A stretch of DNA of 64,000 bases from Fimbriimonadia bacterium (GTDB taxonomy: Bacteria; Armatimonadota; Fimbriimonadia; Fimbriimonadales; JABRVX01). Under the pieces are notes generated by a model. That model worked only from the letters and a program-made list of their open reading frames with translations. It searched no databases and was not told where the DNA came from. A program made the position numbers and the translations under genes. The DNA is taken from contig JBGPGO010000008.1 in assembly GCA_041483895.1 (NCBI GenBank), forward strand, positions 64,001 through 128,000, given 5' to 3'. Positions 1 through 39,496 of this stretch are shown one piece after another. Numbering within the stretch: position 1 is the stretch's first letter; each line of letters begins with the position of its first letter.

Positions 1-728
1 CGCGGGGTTTTTTTGCCGATCCGGTGCGGGCGCTGTTCCCGCCGGAATCGATCATCGAGCGGTTCCGGTTCGACGGCTGCGTTTCGAATTGGGCGGATGT
101 GGAAGGGGCGTTGCGGTTGCTGGCCGATCGGTTGGGCAAGCGCCTGGCCGATCGGGATCGGCAGGGCCAGCGCATGGTGATCGTTTTGGAGACTGGGGGC
201 GCTCCCTCGCGTCTGGAGCGCATGTTCGCCCGTCCCATCGCCACCCCTTCCGCCGCCTTCGCGGCGATGACGTTGATGGTGAAAAACGCCTTTGACGATA
301 CGATCGTCAATGAAAAAACAAAAAACAAAAATTTCATTGACGATCGCATCGTCAAATCCACTCCCAATGATGCGACCGGTCTCCTGACCGAGTCGCAAGT
401 TCCTCCGGGGTCTCCTGACCGGACAAACGACGGGCGGTCAGGAGACCTAAAGAATGGTTGCGACTCGGTCGGGAGACCGGTCGCATCGATTGAGTCGCAC
501 TGTGAAGGGGCCATCCGCGCCATCCGCATCCTGATGCCCGGCCTGGAAAAGACCGACCGCGCCCAACCCAATCTGCTGGAAAGCGTGCCGGAACGGAGGC
601 GGAGGCTGATGATGGAACGCATCATCCGCACCTTCCGCTCCCGTTACGGCGACCGCTCCATCCGCCCGGCGCGCGAGGTCCCCGTCCCGCGGCGATTGCA
701 AATCCTGCGAGAGTGGCAGCGTGGATAG
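1..728 (+). CDS. imuB: ImuB/Y-family polymerase-like protein, C-terminal part (5' truncated by window edge), with in-frame palindromic insertion
   Basis: Frame is open from position 3. ERFRFDG...ALRLLADRLGKRLADRDRQGQRMVIVLE resembles the little-finger/IMS_C region. The stop overlaps the dnaE2 start, the typical imuB-dnaE2 arrangement. Confidence 0.7.
   Translation, partial: RGFFADPVRALFPPESIIERFRFDGCVSNWADVEGALRLLADRLGKRLADRDRQGQRMVIVLETGGAPSRLERMFARPIATPSAAFAAMTLMVKNAFDDTIVNEKTKNKNFIDDRIVKSTPNDATGLLTESQVPPGSPDRTNDGRSGDLKNGCDSVGRPVASIESHCEGAIRAIRILMPGLEKTDRAQPNLLESVPERRRRLMMERIIRTFRSRYGDRSIRPAREVPVPRRLQILREWQRG
291..510. repeat. In-frame mosaic of REP-like palindromes inside imuB
   Basis: Inverted doublet of TTGACGAT-NNN-ATCGTCAA (292-310, 337-355); inverted doublet of GATGCGACCGGTCTCCTGACCGAGTCGCAA (369-398, 458-487) with an inner hairpin; half of CCCTTCACAGTCGCACTGTGAAGGG (493-510). 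Confidence 0.9.
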
Positions 729-3700
729 CCCCGCAAGGAAACGAATATTGGAGGGCTCCGCTCCGTCGGAGCCGCAGATTGCCGTCTGGCGCGAGGCGGG
801 GCGGTGGTGGGACGGCGAGGCGTATCGCGAATTCCGCCGCTTCTTGGACGAGCGCGGCATCCAGCGGGAGAGCGTGGACGAATTTCCATCCCTCAGCCGG
901 GCGCTCTCGGAGAGGATGGAGGAGCAGCCGTACGAGGAGGACCATCGGGAGGAGTGGGCCTTCCGCATGCGCAAGATCCGGGATGAAAAAGTCGCCCGCG
1001 CCAACGGCTGGCTCCCCCGCGACGATGCGACCGGTCTCCTGACCGAGTCGCAAGTTCTTGACGATGCGATCGTCAATGAAAATATTAAAAATGTAGGCGC
1101 GGGTCAGATTGACGATTCGCCACCGATTGCCGACAACCAAGACCCGCGTAACCCCGTTGGAAATTCCGTCCCCCTCGGATCAAAAAATGTAGGCACGGGT
1201 CGGATTGACGATGCCCCGCCGATTGCCGACAACCAAGATGCGATCGTCAATGAAAAAACCTCTCCCTTCACAATAGGGATTGTGAAGGGAGAGAAAAACT
1301 CTCACCTACAGCCAGATTCCTCGCAAGCTCGGAATGACAACTCCCCTTCACAGTGCGACTGTGAAGGGATAAAAAGCACCATATCGTATGTATCCATCCC
1401 TTCACAGTCGCACTGTGAAGGGGACAACGATGCGCCGGGGTTCTCGTCTACCGAATCCGTACGTCCGCCGACCACCCAGACCCCGGCGCAACCCTGTCTC
1501 CATGTGCTCAGTGGATACAGCTTCGGCAGAAGCTCCATGCTCGCCGAGGAGATCCCGGTCCTGTGCGCCGACATGGGTATCCCCGCCGTCCTCGTCGCCG
1601 ACATCTTCTCCCTGACCGGCGCGATGGAGCATTCCAAAGCCGCCAAAAAGGCCGGAATCAAACCGCTGATCGGCGCCACCTTCGAGATGGCCGAAGGCGG
1701 CGAGATCGTCCTCGTCGCCCGCACCCGGAATGGCTATCGGAGCCTCTGCCGCCTGATCTCCGAGTGCCACTTAGGCGAGCCGCGCCTCTTCCCCCTATGC
1801 ACCTGGGAGCGGCTGGAGCGGCACCGCGAAGACCTGCTCTGCCTCACCGGCGGGCACCCCGGCCTGATCAGCCGCCTCCTGCTCGCGCAAAAATATGGCG
1901 AGGCGAATACCGTAACGCGCCGACTGATCGATCTCTATGGCCGCGATAATGTCTTCATACAGATCGAGCGCAGCTACTATCCGTTCGAAAAGGCGCTGGA
2001 GGGGCGGCTGCTGGAGCTGGCCTCCCATTGCGGCGTGCGCCCCGTGGCCGGCGGACCGATCACCCATGCCAAATTCGAGCACTTCCCGGCGCAGGACGTG
2101 CTGATCTGTATAGATACCCTTTGCGCGATTGAAGAAATTGACGGGCGCAAGCCGGGCAGGAAACAGGGGCAAACGCAGGTCGAAGGCCCCCCTCGCCGCG
2201 CCCTCAACGCCGAGAGATATCTGCACAGTCCCGCCGAGATGCGCGCCCTGTTCGTCGACCGGCCGGATTTGCTGGAAAACACATGGGCGGTGGCCGAGCG
2301 GTGCGACCCATGGGTGATGCCGCCCCGGACGGAGCTGCCGAAGCTGTACCCGGACGAGTTCGCCACCCTGCGCGAAATCACCTATGCCGGCGCGCGCGCC
2401 CGCTATCCCAAAATCGGCAGCAGCCTGCACCGCCGCATGGAAAACGAGCTGAACCGGATCGAGCAACTCGGCTTCGCGGGGCATTTTCTGGTCGCGTGGG
2501 ATATGTGCCGGTGGGCGCGGGAGAACCGGATTCTGTTCAGCGGTCGCGGGTCGGTGGTGGATTCGGTGGTGGCGTTTGCTCTTGGCCTTTCCCGCATCGA
2601 CGCGCATCACCACAACCTGCACTTCGATCGCTTCCTTCCCGCAGATGGGTCCAAAAGGCCGGATATCGACATCGACTTCGAGGCCGCCAAACGCAACGAC
2701 GTGCGCGAATATCTGACGAAAAAATATGGCGAAGATCATGTGGCCACCGTCGGGGCGGTGGGGGCCTACTGTTCGCGGGGAATCGTGCGGGAGGTGAGCA
2801 AGGTGTTCGGCATTCCGCCGGAAACGATCGGCTATTTTGCCAAGCGCATCCACGGCGGCGTCAGCCCGGACAACCTGCGCGCCTCCCTCAAGGCCCGGCC
2901 GGAACTGCGAAACAGCAACATCCCGGCGGACCTGTTCGAGTGGGTGTTCGCCCTCAGCCCTCTTCTCATGGATGTGCCGCGAAACATGCGCTCCCATTCG
3001 TCCGGCGTCGTGATCTCCCGAACGCCGATCATGGACACGGTGCCGGTCCTCATCTCCGGCCTGGACTCCGTAAAAATTATGCAGTGGGACAAGCGCAGCG
3101 CCAAGCATGTGTTCGACAAATTCGACGTGCTCTGCCTGCGCGGGCAAGACGTGCTGGGGAGGACCCAGGAGCAGATCCGGCTGTTCGAGGATTTCGATGT
3201 GGAAGACATCTCGCTGGAGGACCCGGACACCTACGCCACCATGCGATCGGGGCATCTGATCGGCGTGCCGCAGTCGGCCTCTCCCGCGATGCGGCAGGCG
3301 CACGTGCGGCTGGGGACGATGGACCTGAAGGACGCCAGTTTGGTGCAGGCGGGCATCCGGCCCGGCGTGGGCGGGGCGGTGAAGATCAACGAATTGATCG
3401 CGCGGCGGCGGGGCAAGCCGTACAGCTTCCAGCATCCCAAATTGGAAAAAATTCTGGGCCACACCTATGGGATTATCGTTTTTCAGGAGCAGGTGGACCA
3501 ACTGCTGCAGGAGTTCGGAAACTATACGTCCGGCGAGGCGGAGGCGACGCGCGAGGCCATCTACGAGAAGCGGCGGGAGAAATACGCGGCGCAGATTAAA
3601 GAGGAGGTGATCTCGCGGGTACTGGCGCAGGGATACGCGCAGTCGGTGGCGGAGGAGGTCTATGATTTAGTTTCCGGATTTCAGGGATATGGGTTTGCGG

Positions 3701-5256
3701 AGGGGCACGCGCTGGCGTTCGCGGAGATTTCGATCCGCTCGGTCTGGTGCCAGCAGCACTATCCGGCGGAGTATTTCGCGGCGCTGCTGAACTCCCAGCC
3801 GGCGGGATATTACGGCCCCTGCACGCTGGCGAACGAGGCGCGGATTCGGGGGGTGAGGATGCTGCCGGTGGATGTGAACGCGAGCGGGTTGGAGTTTTCG
3901 GTGGAGGATGTGCGGTCGGAGATGGACCCTCGGTTGATCCTTCCTCGCGCCGGCATCCGCGTGGCCCTTCACCAGATCAGCGGAGTGTCTTCCGACACCC
4001 TGACCCGCATATCCTTAAATGGGGTCTTGGATTTCATTGGCGATCGCATCGTCAACATCCCTTCACAGTGCGACTGTGAAGGGATAGGAGATGTGTTGGG
4101 GTCCTCGCCTGCCGGATCCGACCGAATGCCAATAAGCCCAGACCCCAACACCGGCATCATCACCCCGGATTTCATTGACGATGCGATCGTCAATGAAAAC
4201 TCCCCTTCACAGTCGCACTGTGAAGGGATGGAGAGACTCCCTCCCCCTTTTTCCGGCGCTGCCCGTTCCCCTGCGCCGGAAAAAGGGGGAGGGTTGGGGT
4301 GGGGGTTTGAATTCTCGATGCGCCGGGGTTCACTGTTACCGACTCCTCCCGATTGCCAACAACCCAGACCCCGGCGCTATACCTCTTTCTTCGACTTCGT
4401 CGCGCGGGTGCGGCCGGCGCGGGACGAGTTGGAGCGGCTGATCCTGTGCGGCGCGCTGGACAGCCTCCACCATAACCGCCGCGCGATGCTGTGGGCGATT
4501 CCCTCGGCGCTCAACTACGCGAGCAGCGTCGCCCCTTCACAGTGCGACGACGATGCGATCGTCAATGAAAAAGTATCTTCCTTCACAATGGGGATTGTGA
4601 AGGAAGAAAAAAATGATGCGACCGGTCTCCCGACCGAGTCGCAAGTTTCTTCGCGGTCTCCGGACCGATGCGGCGACTCGGTCGGGAGACCGGTCGCATC
4701 TATATCGGCTTGCGACTCGGTCAGGAGACCGGTCGCATCCGTAAGCCCAGACCCCAACACCCTCCCCCTCACCAACACCGAACCCCCCATGCCGATGGAC
4801 GTGGCGGATTTTCCCGAGCAGGAAAAGGCGATCTGGGAGCGCGACATCCTTGGCATGGACGTGCAAAAGCACCTGATGGCCTGGGAGCGCGAGCATGTGC
4901 AGGCGCGCGGCGGCATCACGGGAGCGCAGGCGATGGCCTCCAAGGACGGGACGAAATGTTTCGTGGTCGGCCATCCGATCCGCCTGCGCTTTCCCCCGAC
5001 GCAAAGCGGCCGCCGCGTGGTGTTTTTCGATCTGGAAGACGAGACGGGCCTCTTAAATGTGACCTGTTTCGATGAGACCTATCAGCGATATGGGCACGCG
5101 ATTATCTGCAATCCCTATGTGACGGTGGTGGGCATCGCGCAGGCGCGGGACAACTATATGGGATTTTTGGCCGAGAAAATTTTCCCCTACCGCGCCAACC
5201 TCCGCAACTTCACAACCACCCTCCCGCTCACGATGGCAGATTTTCTCGTTAGGTAA
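721..5256 (+). CDS. dnaE2: Error-prone DNA polymerase III alpha subunit (DnaE2/ImuC), 1511 aa, with three large repeat-derived insertions
   Basis: PHP start LHVLSGYSF, SGRGS, catalytic RPDIDIDF and KFDVL, YGFAEGHA, LNSQPAGYY, OB-fold FFDLEDETG. Lies downstream of the imuB-like gene. Confidence 0.92.
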   Translation: MDSPARKRILEGSAPSEPQIAVWREAGRWWDGEAYREFRRFLDERGIQRESVDEFPSLSRALSERMEEQPYEEDHREEWAFRMRKIRDEKVARANGWLPRDDATGLLTESQVLDDAIVNENIKNVGAGQIDDSPPIADNQDPRNPVGNSVPLGSKNVGTGRIDDAPPIADNQDAIVNEKTSPFTIGIVKGEKNSHLQPDSSQARNDNSPSQCDCEGIKSTISYVSIPSQSHCEGDNDAPGFSSTESVRPPTTQTPAQPCLHVLSGYSFGRSSMLAEEIPVLCADMGIPAVLVADIFSLTGAMEHSKAAKKAGIKPLIGATFEMAEGGEIVLVARTRNGYRSLCRLISECHLGEPRLFPLCTWERLERHREDLLCLTGGHPGLISRLLLAQKYGEANTVTRRLIDLYGRDNVFIQIERSYYPFEKALEGRLLELASHCGVRPVAGGPITHAKFEHFPAQDVLICIDTLCAIEEIDGRKPGRKQGQTQVEGPPRRALNAERYLHSPAEMRALFVDRPDLLENTWAVAERCDPWVMPPRTELPKLYPDEFATLREITYAGARARYPKIGSSLHRRMENELNRIEQLGFAGHFLVAWDMCRWARENRILFSGRGSVVDSVVAFALGLSRIDAHHHNLHFDRFLPADGSKRPDIDIDFEAAKRNDVREYLTKKYGEDHVATVGAVGAYCSRGIVREVSKVFGIPPETIGYFAKRIHGGVSPDNLRASLKARPELRNSNIPADLFEWVFALSPLLMDVPRNMRSHSSGVVISRTPIMDTVPVLISGLDSVKIMQWDKRSAKHVFDKFDVLCLRGQDVLGRTQEQIRLFEDFDVEDISLEDPDTYATMRSGHLIGVPQSASPAMRQAHVRLGTMDLKDASLVQAGIRPGVGGAVKINELIARRRGKPYSFQHPKLEKILGHTYGIIVFQEQVDQLLQEFGNYTSGEAEATREAIYEKRREKYAAQIKEEVISRVLAQGYAQSVAEEVYDLVSGFQGYGFAEGHALAFAEISIRSVWCQQHYPAEYFAALLNSQPAGYYGPCTLANEARIRGVRMLPVDVNASGLEFSVEDVRSEMDPRLILPRAGIRVALHQISGVSSDTLTRISLNGVLDFIGDRIVNIPSQCDCEGIGDVLGSSPAGSDRMPISPDPNTGIITPDFIDDAIVNENSPSQSHCEGMERLPPPFSGAARSPAPEKGGGLGWGFEFSMRRGSLLPTPPDCQQPRPRRYTSFFDFVARVRPARDELERLILCGALDSLHHNRRAMLWAIPSALNYASSVAPSQCDDDAIVNEKVSSFTMGIVKEEKNDATGLPTESQVSSRSPDRCGDSVGRPVASISACDSVRRPVASVSPDPNTLPLTNTEPPMPMDVADFPEQEKAIWERDILGMDVQKHLMAWEREHVQARGGITGAQAMASKDGTKCFVVGHPIRLRFPPTQSGRRVVFFDLEDETGLLNVTCFDETYQRYGHAIICNPYVTVVGIAQARDNYMGFLAEKIFPYRANLRNFTTTLPLTMADFLVR
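748..776. repeat. GGAG-prefixed short palindrome TTGGAGGGCTCCGCTCCGTCGGAGCCGCA in the dnaE2 5' region
   Basis: Stem GGCTCCG/CGGAGCC; related copies at 24103-24184. Confidence 0.65.
1021..1490. repeat. dnaE2 in-frame insertion 1: palindrome mosaic
   Basis: Units at 1024-1053, 1058-1076, 1261-1292, 1312-1339, 1344-1368, 1398-1422 and 1432-1489, plus a ~56-bp direct repeat 1087-1142/1183-1238. Ends just before the PHP motif. Confidence 0.9.
4031..4378. repeat. dnaE2 in-frame insertion 2: palindrome mosaic
   Basis: Units at 4037-4055, 4059-4083, 4093-4151, 4170-4198, 4203-4227, ~4237-4305 (CCCTCCCCC...GGGGGAGGG) and 4320-4377. Interrupts the HhH region just before YTSFFDF. Confidence 0.9.
4532..4760. 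repeat. dnaE2 in-frame insertion 3: palindrome mosaic
   Basis: Chimeric unit 4533-4570, then 4576-4607, 4615-4644, 4673-4700, 4710-4739 and a half element at 4741-4760. Lies in the linker before the OB fold. Confidence 0.9.
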
Positions 5257-5275
5257 CGCTGGCATCTTGCCGGCA

Positions 5276-6340
5276 CTATCGACCCGAAGGCTTCGCACCT
5301 GAATGAAAATAAGTGATCGTCCGCGAGATGGCCGGGAGATCGTCGACGAAACCCTCACCATTAATCCATGATCGGTCAGTGCCCATCTGCAAGGTCCAGT
5401 TTCCATGCCTATCGTACTTGTACTCGTACAACATTTCCCAGTCCCGACTTCCATCTTCGTTGTAGCCATTGCGCGAAACAACATTTCCGTACTGATCATA
5501 TCGCTCCACCTTCATCATCCAGGCCTTCCCATCCGCCTCATACGACGTCATCGTCACGGTCCGCGCATCGGGAGAAGAGTCTTCAACAATCTTGGAGCCT
5601 GATTCGGTGTCCGTTAGCGTCCTGGACCTGAGCGTTCCATTTGGATAGTACACGAAATCCTCCACCTGCTTTCCACCATATCGACTGAAGTGCGAAACTA
5701 GCAGTCCACCAGCAACACCATATCGACGTGTCTCATCAATTTGTACGGATCCGCCGAAATCACCAGACGAAAACAATTTTGCATAATGACAAAACTGTTC
5801 GAAACCATCCGCCGTGCGACTCCATCTCCATGAGCCGCGTTCCGTCTTTTCGCCAGAATCATAGGCCTCGTAGGATTTCCGAAGATGATGACCATTGTCA
5901 TATTCGAAAGTCTTGATTGACCCATATGATGCGGAAATGCTAAGGAGGTCTCCCGTTGGCGAGTATTTGTATGTTATCGTGGATTCGGGGGATCCATCCC
6001 TAAACTCCTCCTCGATAATCGGCCGGTGCGAAGCGTCGTAATGATAAACGCACTCATAGAAGCTTTTCCGGCACGCAGGCACAGATTGGGATAGCTGAGA
6101 TAGCTTGATCATAGTGCCGCGCCGATCATACGTTAGTTCGCGCTGAACAGTCCAATGAGCCTGCTCGTTCTCACCATCCCGCGTCTCTTCGACGACTTGC
6201 CGGACAGGTCCACGGAGGTTCTCATCCTTGGCCATTGGAAATAATTCGGGAGGATTGATCGGCTCGATGTTCTTCGGCCATTGAGGTTGCGCGGCGGCGG
6301 ATTGCAGCAGGAGCAAGAGCACCATCATCTCATAACTCAC
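5276..6340 (-). CDS. Secreted YD/RHS-like repeat protein
   Basis: Signal-peptide-like N-terminus; LRGPV motif; YxYD repeats; C-terminal YKYDRHGNW...RTITYF. Paralog of the adjacent gene. Confidence 0.75.
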   Translation of the reverse strand: MSYEMMVLLLLLQSAAAQPQWPKNIEPINPPELFPMAKDENLRGPVRQVVEETRDGENEQAHWTVQRELTYDRRGTMIKLSQLSQSVPACRKSFYECVYHYDASHRPIIEEEFRDGSPESTITYKYSPTGDLLSISASYGSIKTFEYDNGHHLRKSYEAYDSGEKTERGSWRWSRTADGFEQFCHYAKLFSSGDFGGSVQIDETRRYGVAGGLLVSHFSRYGGKQVEDFVYYPNGTLRSRTLTDTESGSKIVEDSSPDARTVTMTSYEADGKAWMMKVERYDQYGNVVSRNGYNEDGSRDWEMLYEYKYDRHGNWTLQMGTDRSWINGEGFVDDLPAISRTITYFHSGAKPSGR

Positions 6341-7392
6341 TTGTAGTACTCGATAGTTCGTCGGACCGCCGCCAGTTCTTCATCGGAAACCTCGCCATCG
6401 GGATAGGTAGTGCGGTTGGACCCAGTGCGCAAAGTCCAATTTCCGTGCGAATCATATGTGTAGTGGTAGACCTGATCCCACGTCATCGCGTCATCGCCGC
6501 CAGATGTGCGGCCCTTACGAGTCAGCTCATTACCATATTTGTCGAACGTCACCACCTCCGATATCCACTGTTTTCCACCTCTCTTCATCACGACCGTTGT
6601 TAACGTCCGGCCATCCTTCGATCGAATCTCCTTATAATCCATCTTCTCGTCCTCATTCGTGATTTTGGTATAACCCTTGCCGACTAGATCGTACGTGCAC
6701 TGCTCTCCGACGTCTCCTTCCGGACCGGTAAGCCTCGTACTCACAAGTTTTCCGCTATTCGTATAAACCCTCACCTCGATTACTTCAGCAAAGGCAACGG
6801 CATGTCCCGATGAAGTGACCATTGTATAGTGGCATTGCTGCTGAAACCTTCCAACGGGAAGGCGCTTCCACTCCCAAACGGCACCTCTCAGCCGCTCGCC
6901 ATGATCGCCGATTTCTGATGACTTAATGACATGATGATCCTGATCATAGGAGTATGTTGTGATCCAAGACGTGTTCTCGCCCGTTGATGTCATTATGGAC
7001 TCGACGAGCCCTCCCCACGAATTGAATTTGTACGCGCACCGACGCCAGCAATGGCCGTTGTCTGAATACTCGATGCCCTCAGTCTGTCCCAGCTTGTCAT
7101 AACTGTATTTTGTCGTTCGGAACCCTTTGTCTCCAGCACGCATCATATCGATCATGCGCACCCGCTCTTCTGTCATGTGGCCGGTTCGGTTGTAAGATGA
7201 CTCTTTCGTTATTCGCCATTCCGGAGGCTGATCCGGTGTCTTCTCATGCGTCTCGACACGGACCTTTGAGACGGGTCCGCGTAGATTTTCATCAGCAACC
7301 TCCGGAACAAGCTTCGGAATGTTGATGGGCTCGATGTTCTTGGGCCAGGGAGCTTGGTTTTGAATGACGAGAGCGAGAAGCGTCAGCAGCAT
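6337..7392 (-). CDS. Secreted YD/RHS-like repeat protein
   Basis: Start reassigned to ATG 7392 (AGGAGG upstream). Shares WPKNIEPIN...DENLRGPV and YDxHGNWT with the neighbour. Confidence 0.75.
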   Translation of the reverse strand: MLLTLLALVIQNQAPWPKNIEPINIPKLVPEVADENLRGPVSKVRVETHEKTPDQPPEWRITKESSYNRTGHMTEERVRMIDMMRAGDKGFRTTKYSYDKLGQTEGIEYSDNGHCWRRCAYKFNSWGGLVESIMTSTGENTSWITTYSYDQDHHVIKSSEIGDHGERLRGAVWEWKRLPVGRFQQQCHYTMVTSSGHAVAFAEVIEVRVYTNSGKLVSTRLTGPEGDVGEQCTYDLVGKGYTKITNEDEKMDYKEIRSKDGRTLTTVVMKRGGKQWISEVVTFDKYGNELTRKGRTSGGDDAMTWDQVYHYTYDSHGNWTLRTGSNRTTYPDGEVSDEELAAVRRTIEYYK

Positions 7393-12704: not shown

Positions 12705-13147
12705 GTGTCGGGGTCTTTGGTTTCGGCTGGAGCAAGGAGTTGCCGGACGTGAACCCCGACACATCCCAAAAATCCCTTCACAGTCGCACTGTGAAGGGAC
12801 ATCCAAATATTAGAATGCCCCGGGGCAAGCCGGGGCAGTTTTTACGATCCCACCAGGAGGATGCGGTTCATCGCCGCACATCCCCGGAGGGCGGTCGGCT
12901 AAAACGCGCGACCCTCCTGGCGCATAGGTTCGTTATACATCTTTTTGCACCACCTCCTTCTTGCTTAGGATTGGTGGCATTATCCCATGCCTGGGGGAGC
13001 GCCGTCAACGGTACTCCACTAGATAAGACGAATGACCCAGGCAAATCATTCCCGCCTTCGGTACCGGGTTTTCGAAATTGCCCACGCGATGTGCCGGGGT
13101 CCTCGTTGGCTGATCCGGTCTGTTCGTTTGCACCGAAGACCCCGGTA
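12705..13147. repeat. Intergenic cluster of palindromic elements between divergent genes
   Basis: Fixed-spacer IRs at 12705-12762 and 13091-13147; CCCTTCACAGTCGCACTGTGAAGGG at 12774-12798; TGCCCCGG-GGCAAG-CCGGGGCA near 12816-12837. Confidence 0.8.
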
Positions 13148-34214: not shown

Positions 34215-34423
34215 CCCTTCACAATAGGGATTGTGAAGGGAAACTGAATCCAGCCCCTTCACAGTACGACTGTGAAGGGATATCTGCTCGAATGTCGCTA
34301 TCTCCCTTCACAATCCCTATTGTGAAGGGAGAATTGGTTTCCGTTGATCGACGATGCGATCGTCAGGGAAAAGGAAACCCGCGCAGAAAAAGGAAATCCC
34401 CTCACAGTCCGACTGTGAGGGGA
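34215..34423. repeat. Intergenic palindrome mosaic between convergent genes
   Basis: Units at 34215-34240, 34255-34279, 34301-34332, 34350-34365 and 34397-34423; same families as in dnaE2. Confidence 0.9.
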
Positions 34424-39209: not shown

Positions 39210-39496
39210 GTAGTCGCGGGCCAGCTTGCCGATACCCTTCCGTCCACCAACTCCAGGGGCCCGCGTTGGACCACGGCGGATGTGGAAAAACTGTTGGATA
39301 TCGGATATTTCGCCCCTCGCACGCGGGACATATGGTCGGCAATCCGATGCGGTATCACAATGCTGTCCCGCGCCTACAAAACATGGCCATTCCGTTATTC
39401 GGTATCCCTTCACAGTCGCACTGTGAAGGGTGCCGCTGTGTTGGGGTCCTCGTCTACCGAATCATGACTCTCGCCATCAGCCCCAGACCCCAACAC
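39210..39496. repeat. Intergenic palindrome cluster
   Basis: GTAG-type arms (39210 GTAGTCGCGGGCC; ~39364 GTCCCGCGCCTAC), perfect CCCTTCACAGTCGCACTGTGAAGGG 39406-39430, fixed-spacer IR 39438-39496. Confidence 0.85.

Follow-up and report, generated by a model that had tools for sequence, protein, structure and literature searches.

Short palindromic repeats inside reading frames have been described before. Di Nocera, De Gregorio and Rocco (2013; PMC3733652) reported intragenic repetitive extragenic palindromes (REPs), including double insertions and clusters that encode 43–82 aa; they also describe enrichment in repair genes, speculate on mutators, and list four dnaE2 genes with REPs, those of O. 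terrae (934–971), S. wittichi (81 aa), R. palustris and E. litoralis. Work on REPtrons and bacterial interspersed mosaic elements (BIMEs) showed that E. coli TnpA-REP acts in vitro on single-stranded BIMEs, cleaving and recombining them, and proposed that new insertions occur near resident REPs (Ton-Hoang 2012; PMC3333891). Rickettsia palindromic elements (RPEs) are given as single elements of 105–146 bp (PMC3184786). As for the host genes, DnaE2 systems without ImuA exist (iPolY with ImuB-C and RecA; the DnaE2X and DnaE2B groups), and reduced ImuBs that retain the thumb and little finger are described as common (PMC12926913). Here we analyze a dnaE2-type gene and the imuB-like gene ahead of it in a Fimbriimonadia bacterium (assembly GCA_041483895.1), both of which carry long in-frame mosaics of REP-like units. 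The two genes lie at the start of what we call the window, the 64,000-nt stretch of DNA that was examined (C8:64001–128000). Intragenic REPs in dnaE2 have been known since 2013, and this genome is an unusually heavy case.

The assembly comprises 3.95 Mb in 43 contigs (57.9% GC, 95% complete). Genes were called with a hexamer model, which gave 3376 genome-wide. Repeat families were defined as clusters of 16-mers with at least five copies, a definition that rare or diverged repeats escape. Database homologues at 57–60% identity bear the label Fimbriimonadaceae. The features of the operon, in window coordinates, are listed below.

1..728, + strand: 3' part of an imuB-like inactive Y-family gene (391 aa; start 447 nt before the window, at C8:63553)
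292..511, + strand: REP mosaic in the imuB-like gene, about 70 aa in the little-finger region (family 13 inverted pair, family 0 doublet, family 3 part-unit)
721..5256, + strand: dnaE2-type DNA polymerase III alpha gene, a single intact frame of 1511 aa (from orthologue alignment and domain matches)
748..774, + strand: single family 21 unit at the N-terminal end of dnaE2, part of the protein should translation begin at GTG 721
1023..1489, + strand: block 1, families 0, 13, 15, 2 and 3 plus terminal-inverted-repeat (TIR)-type units, in the linker that joins PHP to the N-terminal domain, net about 135–140 aa
4032..4377, + strand: block 2, families 13, 3, 9 and 5/1 plus one TIR-type unit; adds about 113 aa to an HhH-region loop
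4530..4762, + strand: block 3, families 3, 13, 15 and 0 (three times), in the HhH/OB linker, about 72 aa
5253..5274, + strand: GTAA-type repeat that provides the TAA stop codon of dnaE2

DnaE2 runs from a small N-terminal WW domain through PHP, palm, fingers and HhH to OB, contains the GRGS, PDIDIDF and KFD motifs, and in a profile scan scored above the cut-off of TIGR00594 and below that of PRK05672. Its extra sequence was placed by alignment to 22 orthologue loci drawn from 40 relatives, and the bounds of the imuB-like mosaic come from comparison with 13 locus orthologues and 21 database homologues. One of the orthologue rows, L022 from genome G036, is marked unpublished and is never the sole basis of a conclusion. 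Beyond orthologue length there are about 330 residues in DnaE2 and about 70 in the imuB-like protein. Across the four mosaics, 87, 73, 84 and 91% of the sequence has at least one match elsewhere in the genome and 83, 58, 75 and 86% at least three; four core coding stretches used as controls reached 5–18% and 0%, respectively. Folding z-scores were −14.5 for the imuB-like block and −11.6 for block 3, with none of 200 shuffles equally stable; of the two predicted hairpin structures, one reaches −132 and the other −137 kcal/mol. All five coding repeat sites of the operon preserve the frame, and a perfect 9-bp hairpin within dnaE2 was found at none of the 22 orthologue loci. No in-frame ATG was found ahead of the conserved DnaE2 domain, and an Rfam search of window positions 1–6000 returned no matches. 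These data uphold what a first-pass annotation, made from the letters alone, had proposed: that palindromic mosaics lie in frame in both genes with the polymerase motifs intact, and that intergenic mosaics would become new protein sequence; the inserts are in frame and would add residues that the orthologues, which lack these segments, do not have. The units at 748–774 and at the stop codon had escaped that annotation.

Judged by its sequence, the DnaE2 core is conserved and the polymerase does not appear to be decaying. It retains 212 of 214 columns that are invariant across 20 orthologues (a set excluding the truncated L003 and the frameshifted L023), and its terminal branch of 0.52 in a quick tree lies inside the 0.01–0.76 range of the other branches. 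Identity to four relatives is 56–59% for DnaE2 vs. 49–52% for DnaE1. The earlier suggestion of relaxed selection therefore holds for the length of the loops and fails for the core. An AlphaFold model of the last 551 aa, whose fold matches Pol III alpha, gave predicted local distance difference test (pLDDT) scores mostly below 50 for blocks 2 and 3 and mostly above 80 for the flanking domains, so both blocks are predicted to be disordered segments between confident domains. Block 3 maps between residues 915 and 943 of E. coli alpha, which we take to be the position of the internal clamp motif of Pol III alpha.

The genome-wide count is 1457 units, which fall into 109 k-mer families; 1112 of the units are intergenic, 100 lie across gene ends and 245 inside called genes. 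Units are about 30-fold rarer per base in coding DNA, and 389 of the 674 unit clusters contain at least two. Families 13, 3 and 0 have 48–107 copies each within two mismatches. The genome holds 21 inverted family 0 doublets; the one in the imuB-like gene is 119 nt long and shares 96.7% identity with a copy between genes on C7. Coding copies of families 0 and 3 are no better conserved than intergenic ones, each carrying about one mismatch. The expectation that block families recur between genes was borne out within the window itself, at the following places.

12770..12799, no strand: intergenic family 3 copy, adjoining TIR-type units at 12705–12765
34215..34365, no strand: intergenic mosaic of families 15, 3, 15 and 13
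39403..39496, no strand: intergenic mosaic of family 3 (39403–39430) and a family-9 TIR-type element (39437–39496)

Eight genes resemble REP-associated tyrosine transposases (RAYTs), six found as Y1_Tnp and two more with a profile built from those six; seven pass the NF047646 cut-off and the eighth scores 79.7 against a threshold of 80. Family 3 (read as PSQSHCEG) flanks the RAYT on C5 in inverted orientation, family 0 (read as DATGLLTESQ) flanks the RAYT on C12, and family-9-type terminal repeats flank one RAYT on C6. The block units start with GATG or xAT, not with GTAG or CGTC, and GTAG occurs in families 14 and 18, outside the blocks. No target-site duplication was seen in the flanks of the 21 family 0 doublets, and none of five relatives searched contained family 0. 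Being short, multi-copy, mostly extragenic and clustered, the block units are REP-type elements, and three of their types flank RAYT genes.

Two further arrangements were observed near candidate mobilizers. A tandem array of family 0 variants with G-rich spacers lies directly 3' of the C12 RAYT (L236:414–883; C12:72914–73383). Inverted family 2 repeats bracket a 95-aa open reading frame (L237:215–502, C28), possibly a second kind of mobilizer; it had no NCBIfam hit and presumably resembles a GIY-YIG nuclease. A DUF559 nuclease considered as the mobilizer of families 1/5 was rejected for lack of a match.

The units share several properties with the GTAG/CGTC REPs (PMC3733652): they are short multi-copy palindromes, mostly extragenic, arranged in dimers or clusters, sometimes in frame, with ends that supply stop codons. 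They differ in that the mosaics draw on at least nine families rather than one, that blocks encode 70–140 aa and add about 330 aa to one protein, that the main units lack the tag, and that translation and metabolism genes are hit and other repair genes are not. As in REPtrons and BIMEs (PMC3333891), HUH/Y1 genes are flanked by inverted units, inverted doublets occur and target-site duplications were not seen; unlike there, eight RAYTs are present for several families, heterologous families are interleaved, and 17% of the units lie in called genes. The likeness to RPEs is that palindromic DNA stands in frame within housekeeping proteins. Here, in contrast, units of 25–50 nt are stacked in mosaics and cognate transposase genes are present, only the family 0 doublet reaching 119 nt. 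The lack of direct repeats in the flanks inspected for the 21 family 0 doublets also sets this family apart from miniature inverted-repeat transposable elements. The premise of the first-pass annotation that coding palindromes are known only as single elements is contradicted by the REP clusters and the four dnaE2 genes published in 2013. A literature search lacking most subscription papers turned up nothing more recent on dnaE2 REPs.

Confinement to the mutasome did not survive the genome-wide count. Internal units, defined as lying no closer than 120 nt to the start and 60 nt to the end, occur in 71 genes, many of them housekeeping genes, and we reject mutasome specificity on this ground. 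None of these genes is as dense as dnaE2, which is the heaviest host with 21 units; the runner-up has seven. Apart from dnaE2, 66 of the 70 hosts match Pfam or NCBIfam, with some units sitting in terminal tails. The protein continues on both sides of the unit in Ffh, Era, TrmD, AlaS, CarB, PurL, PurA, HisF, AroE, HemW, QueG, WaaA and MnmG. No internal unit was found in uvrA, polA, two UvrD-family genes, recA, lexA or dnaE1. General enrichment in the repair genes of this genome was not seen. A moaE-like gene (L044; C2:194829–195527) is preceded by a 7-unit mosaic in open frame, which may be a fused N-terminal insert or an over-long gene call.

We compared DnaE1 with the second DnaE in Armatimonadota genomes chosen for having both; of 61 pairs, this genome, two DnaE1-like second copies and one near-duplicate were removed, leaving 57. 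Inserts of at least 20 aa between PHP and OB were present in 20 of 57 second DnaEs and in one of 57 DnaE1s, where the insert is intein-like (sign test, p = 2 × 10⁻⁵, with kin not independent and the second DnaEs heterogeneous). The inserts fall at a handful of recurring sites, and different lineages have unrelated insert sequences. REP-like hairpins are present in about five of the 20, and most have no strong hairpin. Few strong hairpins combined with few reused loops point to loop tolerance and not targeting, in keeping with the tolerant loops named earlier as one possible explanation. Most simply, extra length is tolerated in the loops of DnaE2, and in genomes with abundant repeats these loops become filled with them.

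The same loops have been lengthened independently elsewhere. Among the other REP-bearing second DnaEs, the genome-wide repeat check covered G002 only; its dnaE2 is non-orthologous and frameshifted, and its PHP and HhH regions have been colonized independently by mosaics of an unrelated REP (C83:1–4042), which numbers 715 copies in G002 and 128 in G001. Long DnaE2s from the order, selected by length so that they show sites and not frequencies, have repeat-like or low-complexity peptides in the same loops, including the linker before PHP, as do some imuB-like homologues. In one genome (L003; G031 C4), the dnaE2 orthologue meets a stop codon in the HhH loop occupied by block 2 in our genome, and the rest of HhH and OB are missing.

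The imuB-like protein retains the thumb and little finger. It has lost about 65 residues in frame after residue four (at about C8:63570), a loss seen in none of 19 full-length database homologues and in none of the locus orthologues; contigs of two metagenome runs bridge the deletion junction. The protein terminates shortly after the little finger, DUF6504 was not detected in it, and no separate ImuB-C gene was recognized in the genome. We found no imuA in this 95% complete genome, where NF033429 matches only recA, below its cut-off. "Mutasome" is a loose term here for that reason. The C-family polymerase is catalytically intact as judged by its motifs and invariant columns. In gene content, the operon is similar to the ImuA-less DnaE2 systems (PMC12926913), having an apparently inactive Y-family gene 5' of DnaE2, RecA and no imuA, and it differs in the lack of a recognizable ImuB-C gene.

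A palindrome, GTAGAC-N4-GTCTAC, stands ahead of the operon (C8:63540–63561, about 450 nt before the window) and at 11 of 11 orthologue loci inspected. It scores 26.4 bits on the orthologue profile, making it the best site in the genome. The same palindrome precedes a UvrD-family gene (C3:217855) and a radical-SAM-like gene (C1:232741), and it was not found before recA or lexA in this genome. SOS control of the operon through this palindrome, a candidate damage-response operator of the order, is plausible.

Two observations concern the N-terminus of DnaE2. At window positions 760–1000 lies the small conserved WW domain, with the pattern W-x5-WW-x-GE, which is fused to the DnaE2 N-terminus throughout the order. 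Pfam and the ESM Atlas gave no usable match for it, and DUF6504/ImuB-C was not detected there; it may stand in for ImuB-C. Two DnaE2 homologues of about 1715 aa (P0031, P0036) have an N-terminal extension of about 550 aa that carries PF13298.

Taken together, we think it likely that genome-wide REP hairpins, probably spread by the genome's own RAYTs, have come to lie in frame in dnaE2 and the imuB-like gene, in loops that probably accept almost any extra length. Units would be deposited when RAYTs cleave single-stranded DNA (ssDNA) and transfer its strands, and fresh units would land beside resident ones, so that mosaics grow. Selection would purge insertions that break the frame or the fold. 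More units would be retained by a polymerase that is non-essential, induced by damage and equipped with several long linkers than by its essential paralogue. Most likely the extra peptides are disordered and neutral, carried along as passengers.

Several points weigh against this account. A single mobilizer is not established, because no RAYT was found in the genome beside families 13, 15 or 1/5 and because family 2 flanks a small open reading frame instead. A crude whole-gene hairpin count did not separate the paralogues (26 vs. 29, p = 0.35), with chance hairpins dominating it. Repeats occur at seven places in the operon if those ahead of the promoter and at the stop codon are included, which may exceed what tolerance alone explains. 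The loss of about 65 residues that is unique to this imuB-like gene hints at decay of the polymerase's partner. Lastly, translation of the inserts and activity of DnaE2 are both predictions.

An alternative is that dnaE2 is truly targeted, with the operon, or G-rich transcribed DNA in general, exposing ssDNA for RAYT strand transfer more often. We consider such an insertion bias unlikely. The seven repeat sites would fit it, as would the three blocks in dnaE2, given that a length-based Poisson model expects 0.02 genes with at least three. However, that null is too narrow, since five genes with at least two blocks were observed against 1.2 expected. The operator-like palindrome conserved before the imuB-like gene also speaks for a bias, and R-loops and repair are named as possible ssDNA sources in PMC3333891, yet the genes listed above, from uvrA to dnaE1, have no internal unit, and most second-DnaE inserts are without a strong hairpin.

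Base composition also bears on a bias. Upstream of repeat clusters across the genome, G is enriched and A depleted at four-fold sites of the coding strand, as also at about 3100–4000 in the window. GC skew is +0.13 within 500 nt upstream of coding clusters vs. +0.006 in control genes, and the effect is stronger for larger clusters and declines over about 1 kb. Against this, the comparison within genes gives weak support (35 of 58, p = 0.04), and the skew near blocks 2 and 3 is inside the range of REP-free orthologues. Double-strand-break resection and a C-to-T origin were rejected as sources of the skew, which is one-sided and G-up/A-down.

A related observation comes from DnaE1. Among 120 listed long DnaE1 homologues, six contain a whole RAYT/Y1 domain in frame at the palm–fingers junction (P0123, P0128, P0135, P0137, P0138 and P0140, at about residues 570–800), one of them labeled Fimbriimonadaceae. 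These domains are flanked by repeat-like peptides, and both of the two that were scanned pass NF047646. The search was dominated by other phyla and by inteins, and no rate was derived from it. We found no publication on in-frame RAYT fusions or on skew beside REPs, in a search that most subscription papers lay outside. The in-frame RAYTs in DnaE1 and the flanking skew are leads to something more than tolerance. They could mean that RAYT elements actively land in the loops of C-family polymerases, where whole cassettes of a transposase between two hairpins lodge in frame, that insertion prefers single-stranded, G-skewed DNA under transcription, as in a damage-induced operon, and that the dnaE2 mosaics are what has accumulated from such events; on present evidence, we regard this as improbable. 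If it were true, DNA damage itself would drive new peptide into the enzyme that handles damage.

It is quite unlikely that the operon has been unused since the imuB-like deletion and merely collects repeats. The deletion is supported by contigs of two runs, no imuA was found, and in G031 and G002 a related dnaE2 is cut short or carries a frameshift close to the HhH loop. A decaying operon would nevertheless not be expected to keep five coding repeat sites in frame, nearly all invariant columns and a branch that is not long, or to be preceded by the genome's best operator-like site. Reduction of the Y-family protein to thumb and little finger is, moreover, common among ImuBs (PMC12926913).

We find it very unlikely that the inserts are functional, whether as hairpins that damp mutator expression or as peptides that alter the enzyme, along the lines of the mutator speculation of 2013. 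The stability of the hairpins would suit the first role. For the second, block 3 sits where we assume the internal clamp motif to be, and block 2 lies in the HhH region, which a published model places against the ImuB thumb (PMC12926913). However, the same units occur in the essential genes ffh, era, trmD and alaS, the insert sequences are unrelated between lineages and absent from most orthologues, and the coding copies of families 0 and 3 are no more conserved than the intergenic ones.

A mechanistic link in the other direction, in which the mutasome forms part of the repeat-propagation machinery by repair synthesis at RAYT nicks, had also been put forward and is highly improbable. It is favored by co-occurrence alone, in this genome and G002, and by a published amplification model that includes extension by a host polymerase (PMC3333891). 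Such a link is not needed: in G001, a genome of the same family that is 98% complete, one REP reaches 128 copies although no second DnaE was matched. The 22 orthologue loci have dnaE2 without a strong hairpin, and a function acting in trans would not put repeats into the polymerase's own gene.

Contigs of five public sediment metagenome runs, which may include the source sample, bridged at least five of the eight block junctions with at least 31 letters on each side and 0–1 differences. The remaining three were unbridged among the contig pieces listed, and none of the contig joints listed from these runs showed clean excision of a block. No RNA data set was among the public runs listed for this sequence, which says nothing for or against expression. 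Misassembly at repeats has a negligible chance of being the explanation, for although the assembly is fragmented and includes no long reads, every mosaic has unique spacers, the frame is kept at all sites, unlike in random misjoins, and about 70 other genes as well as other genomes look alike.

Downstream of the operon, on the − strand at 5276–7392, is an adjacent related pair of genes (354 and 351 aa) whose products look secreted and have Tyr/Asp-rich repeats. A Pfam scan of one of the two proteins gave no match.

We return to the reading that we favor, REP units accepted by tolerant loops. The paired DnaE2/DnaE1 comparison favors loop tolerance over targeting, and it gives the mutator speculation of 2013 a plainer and testable answer, namely that DnaE2 accepts long inserts, whatever their kind, far more often than its essential paralogue. 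In practice, blocks of this kind lengthen gene calls, split hidden Markov model matches and produce false "novel domains". For the organism, non-coding mobile DNA would be extending proteins, by about 330 residues in DnaE2 and by tens in Ffh, Era and TrmD, with candidate transposases alongside.

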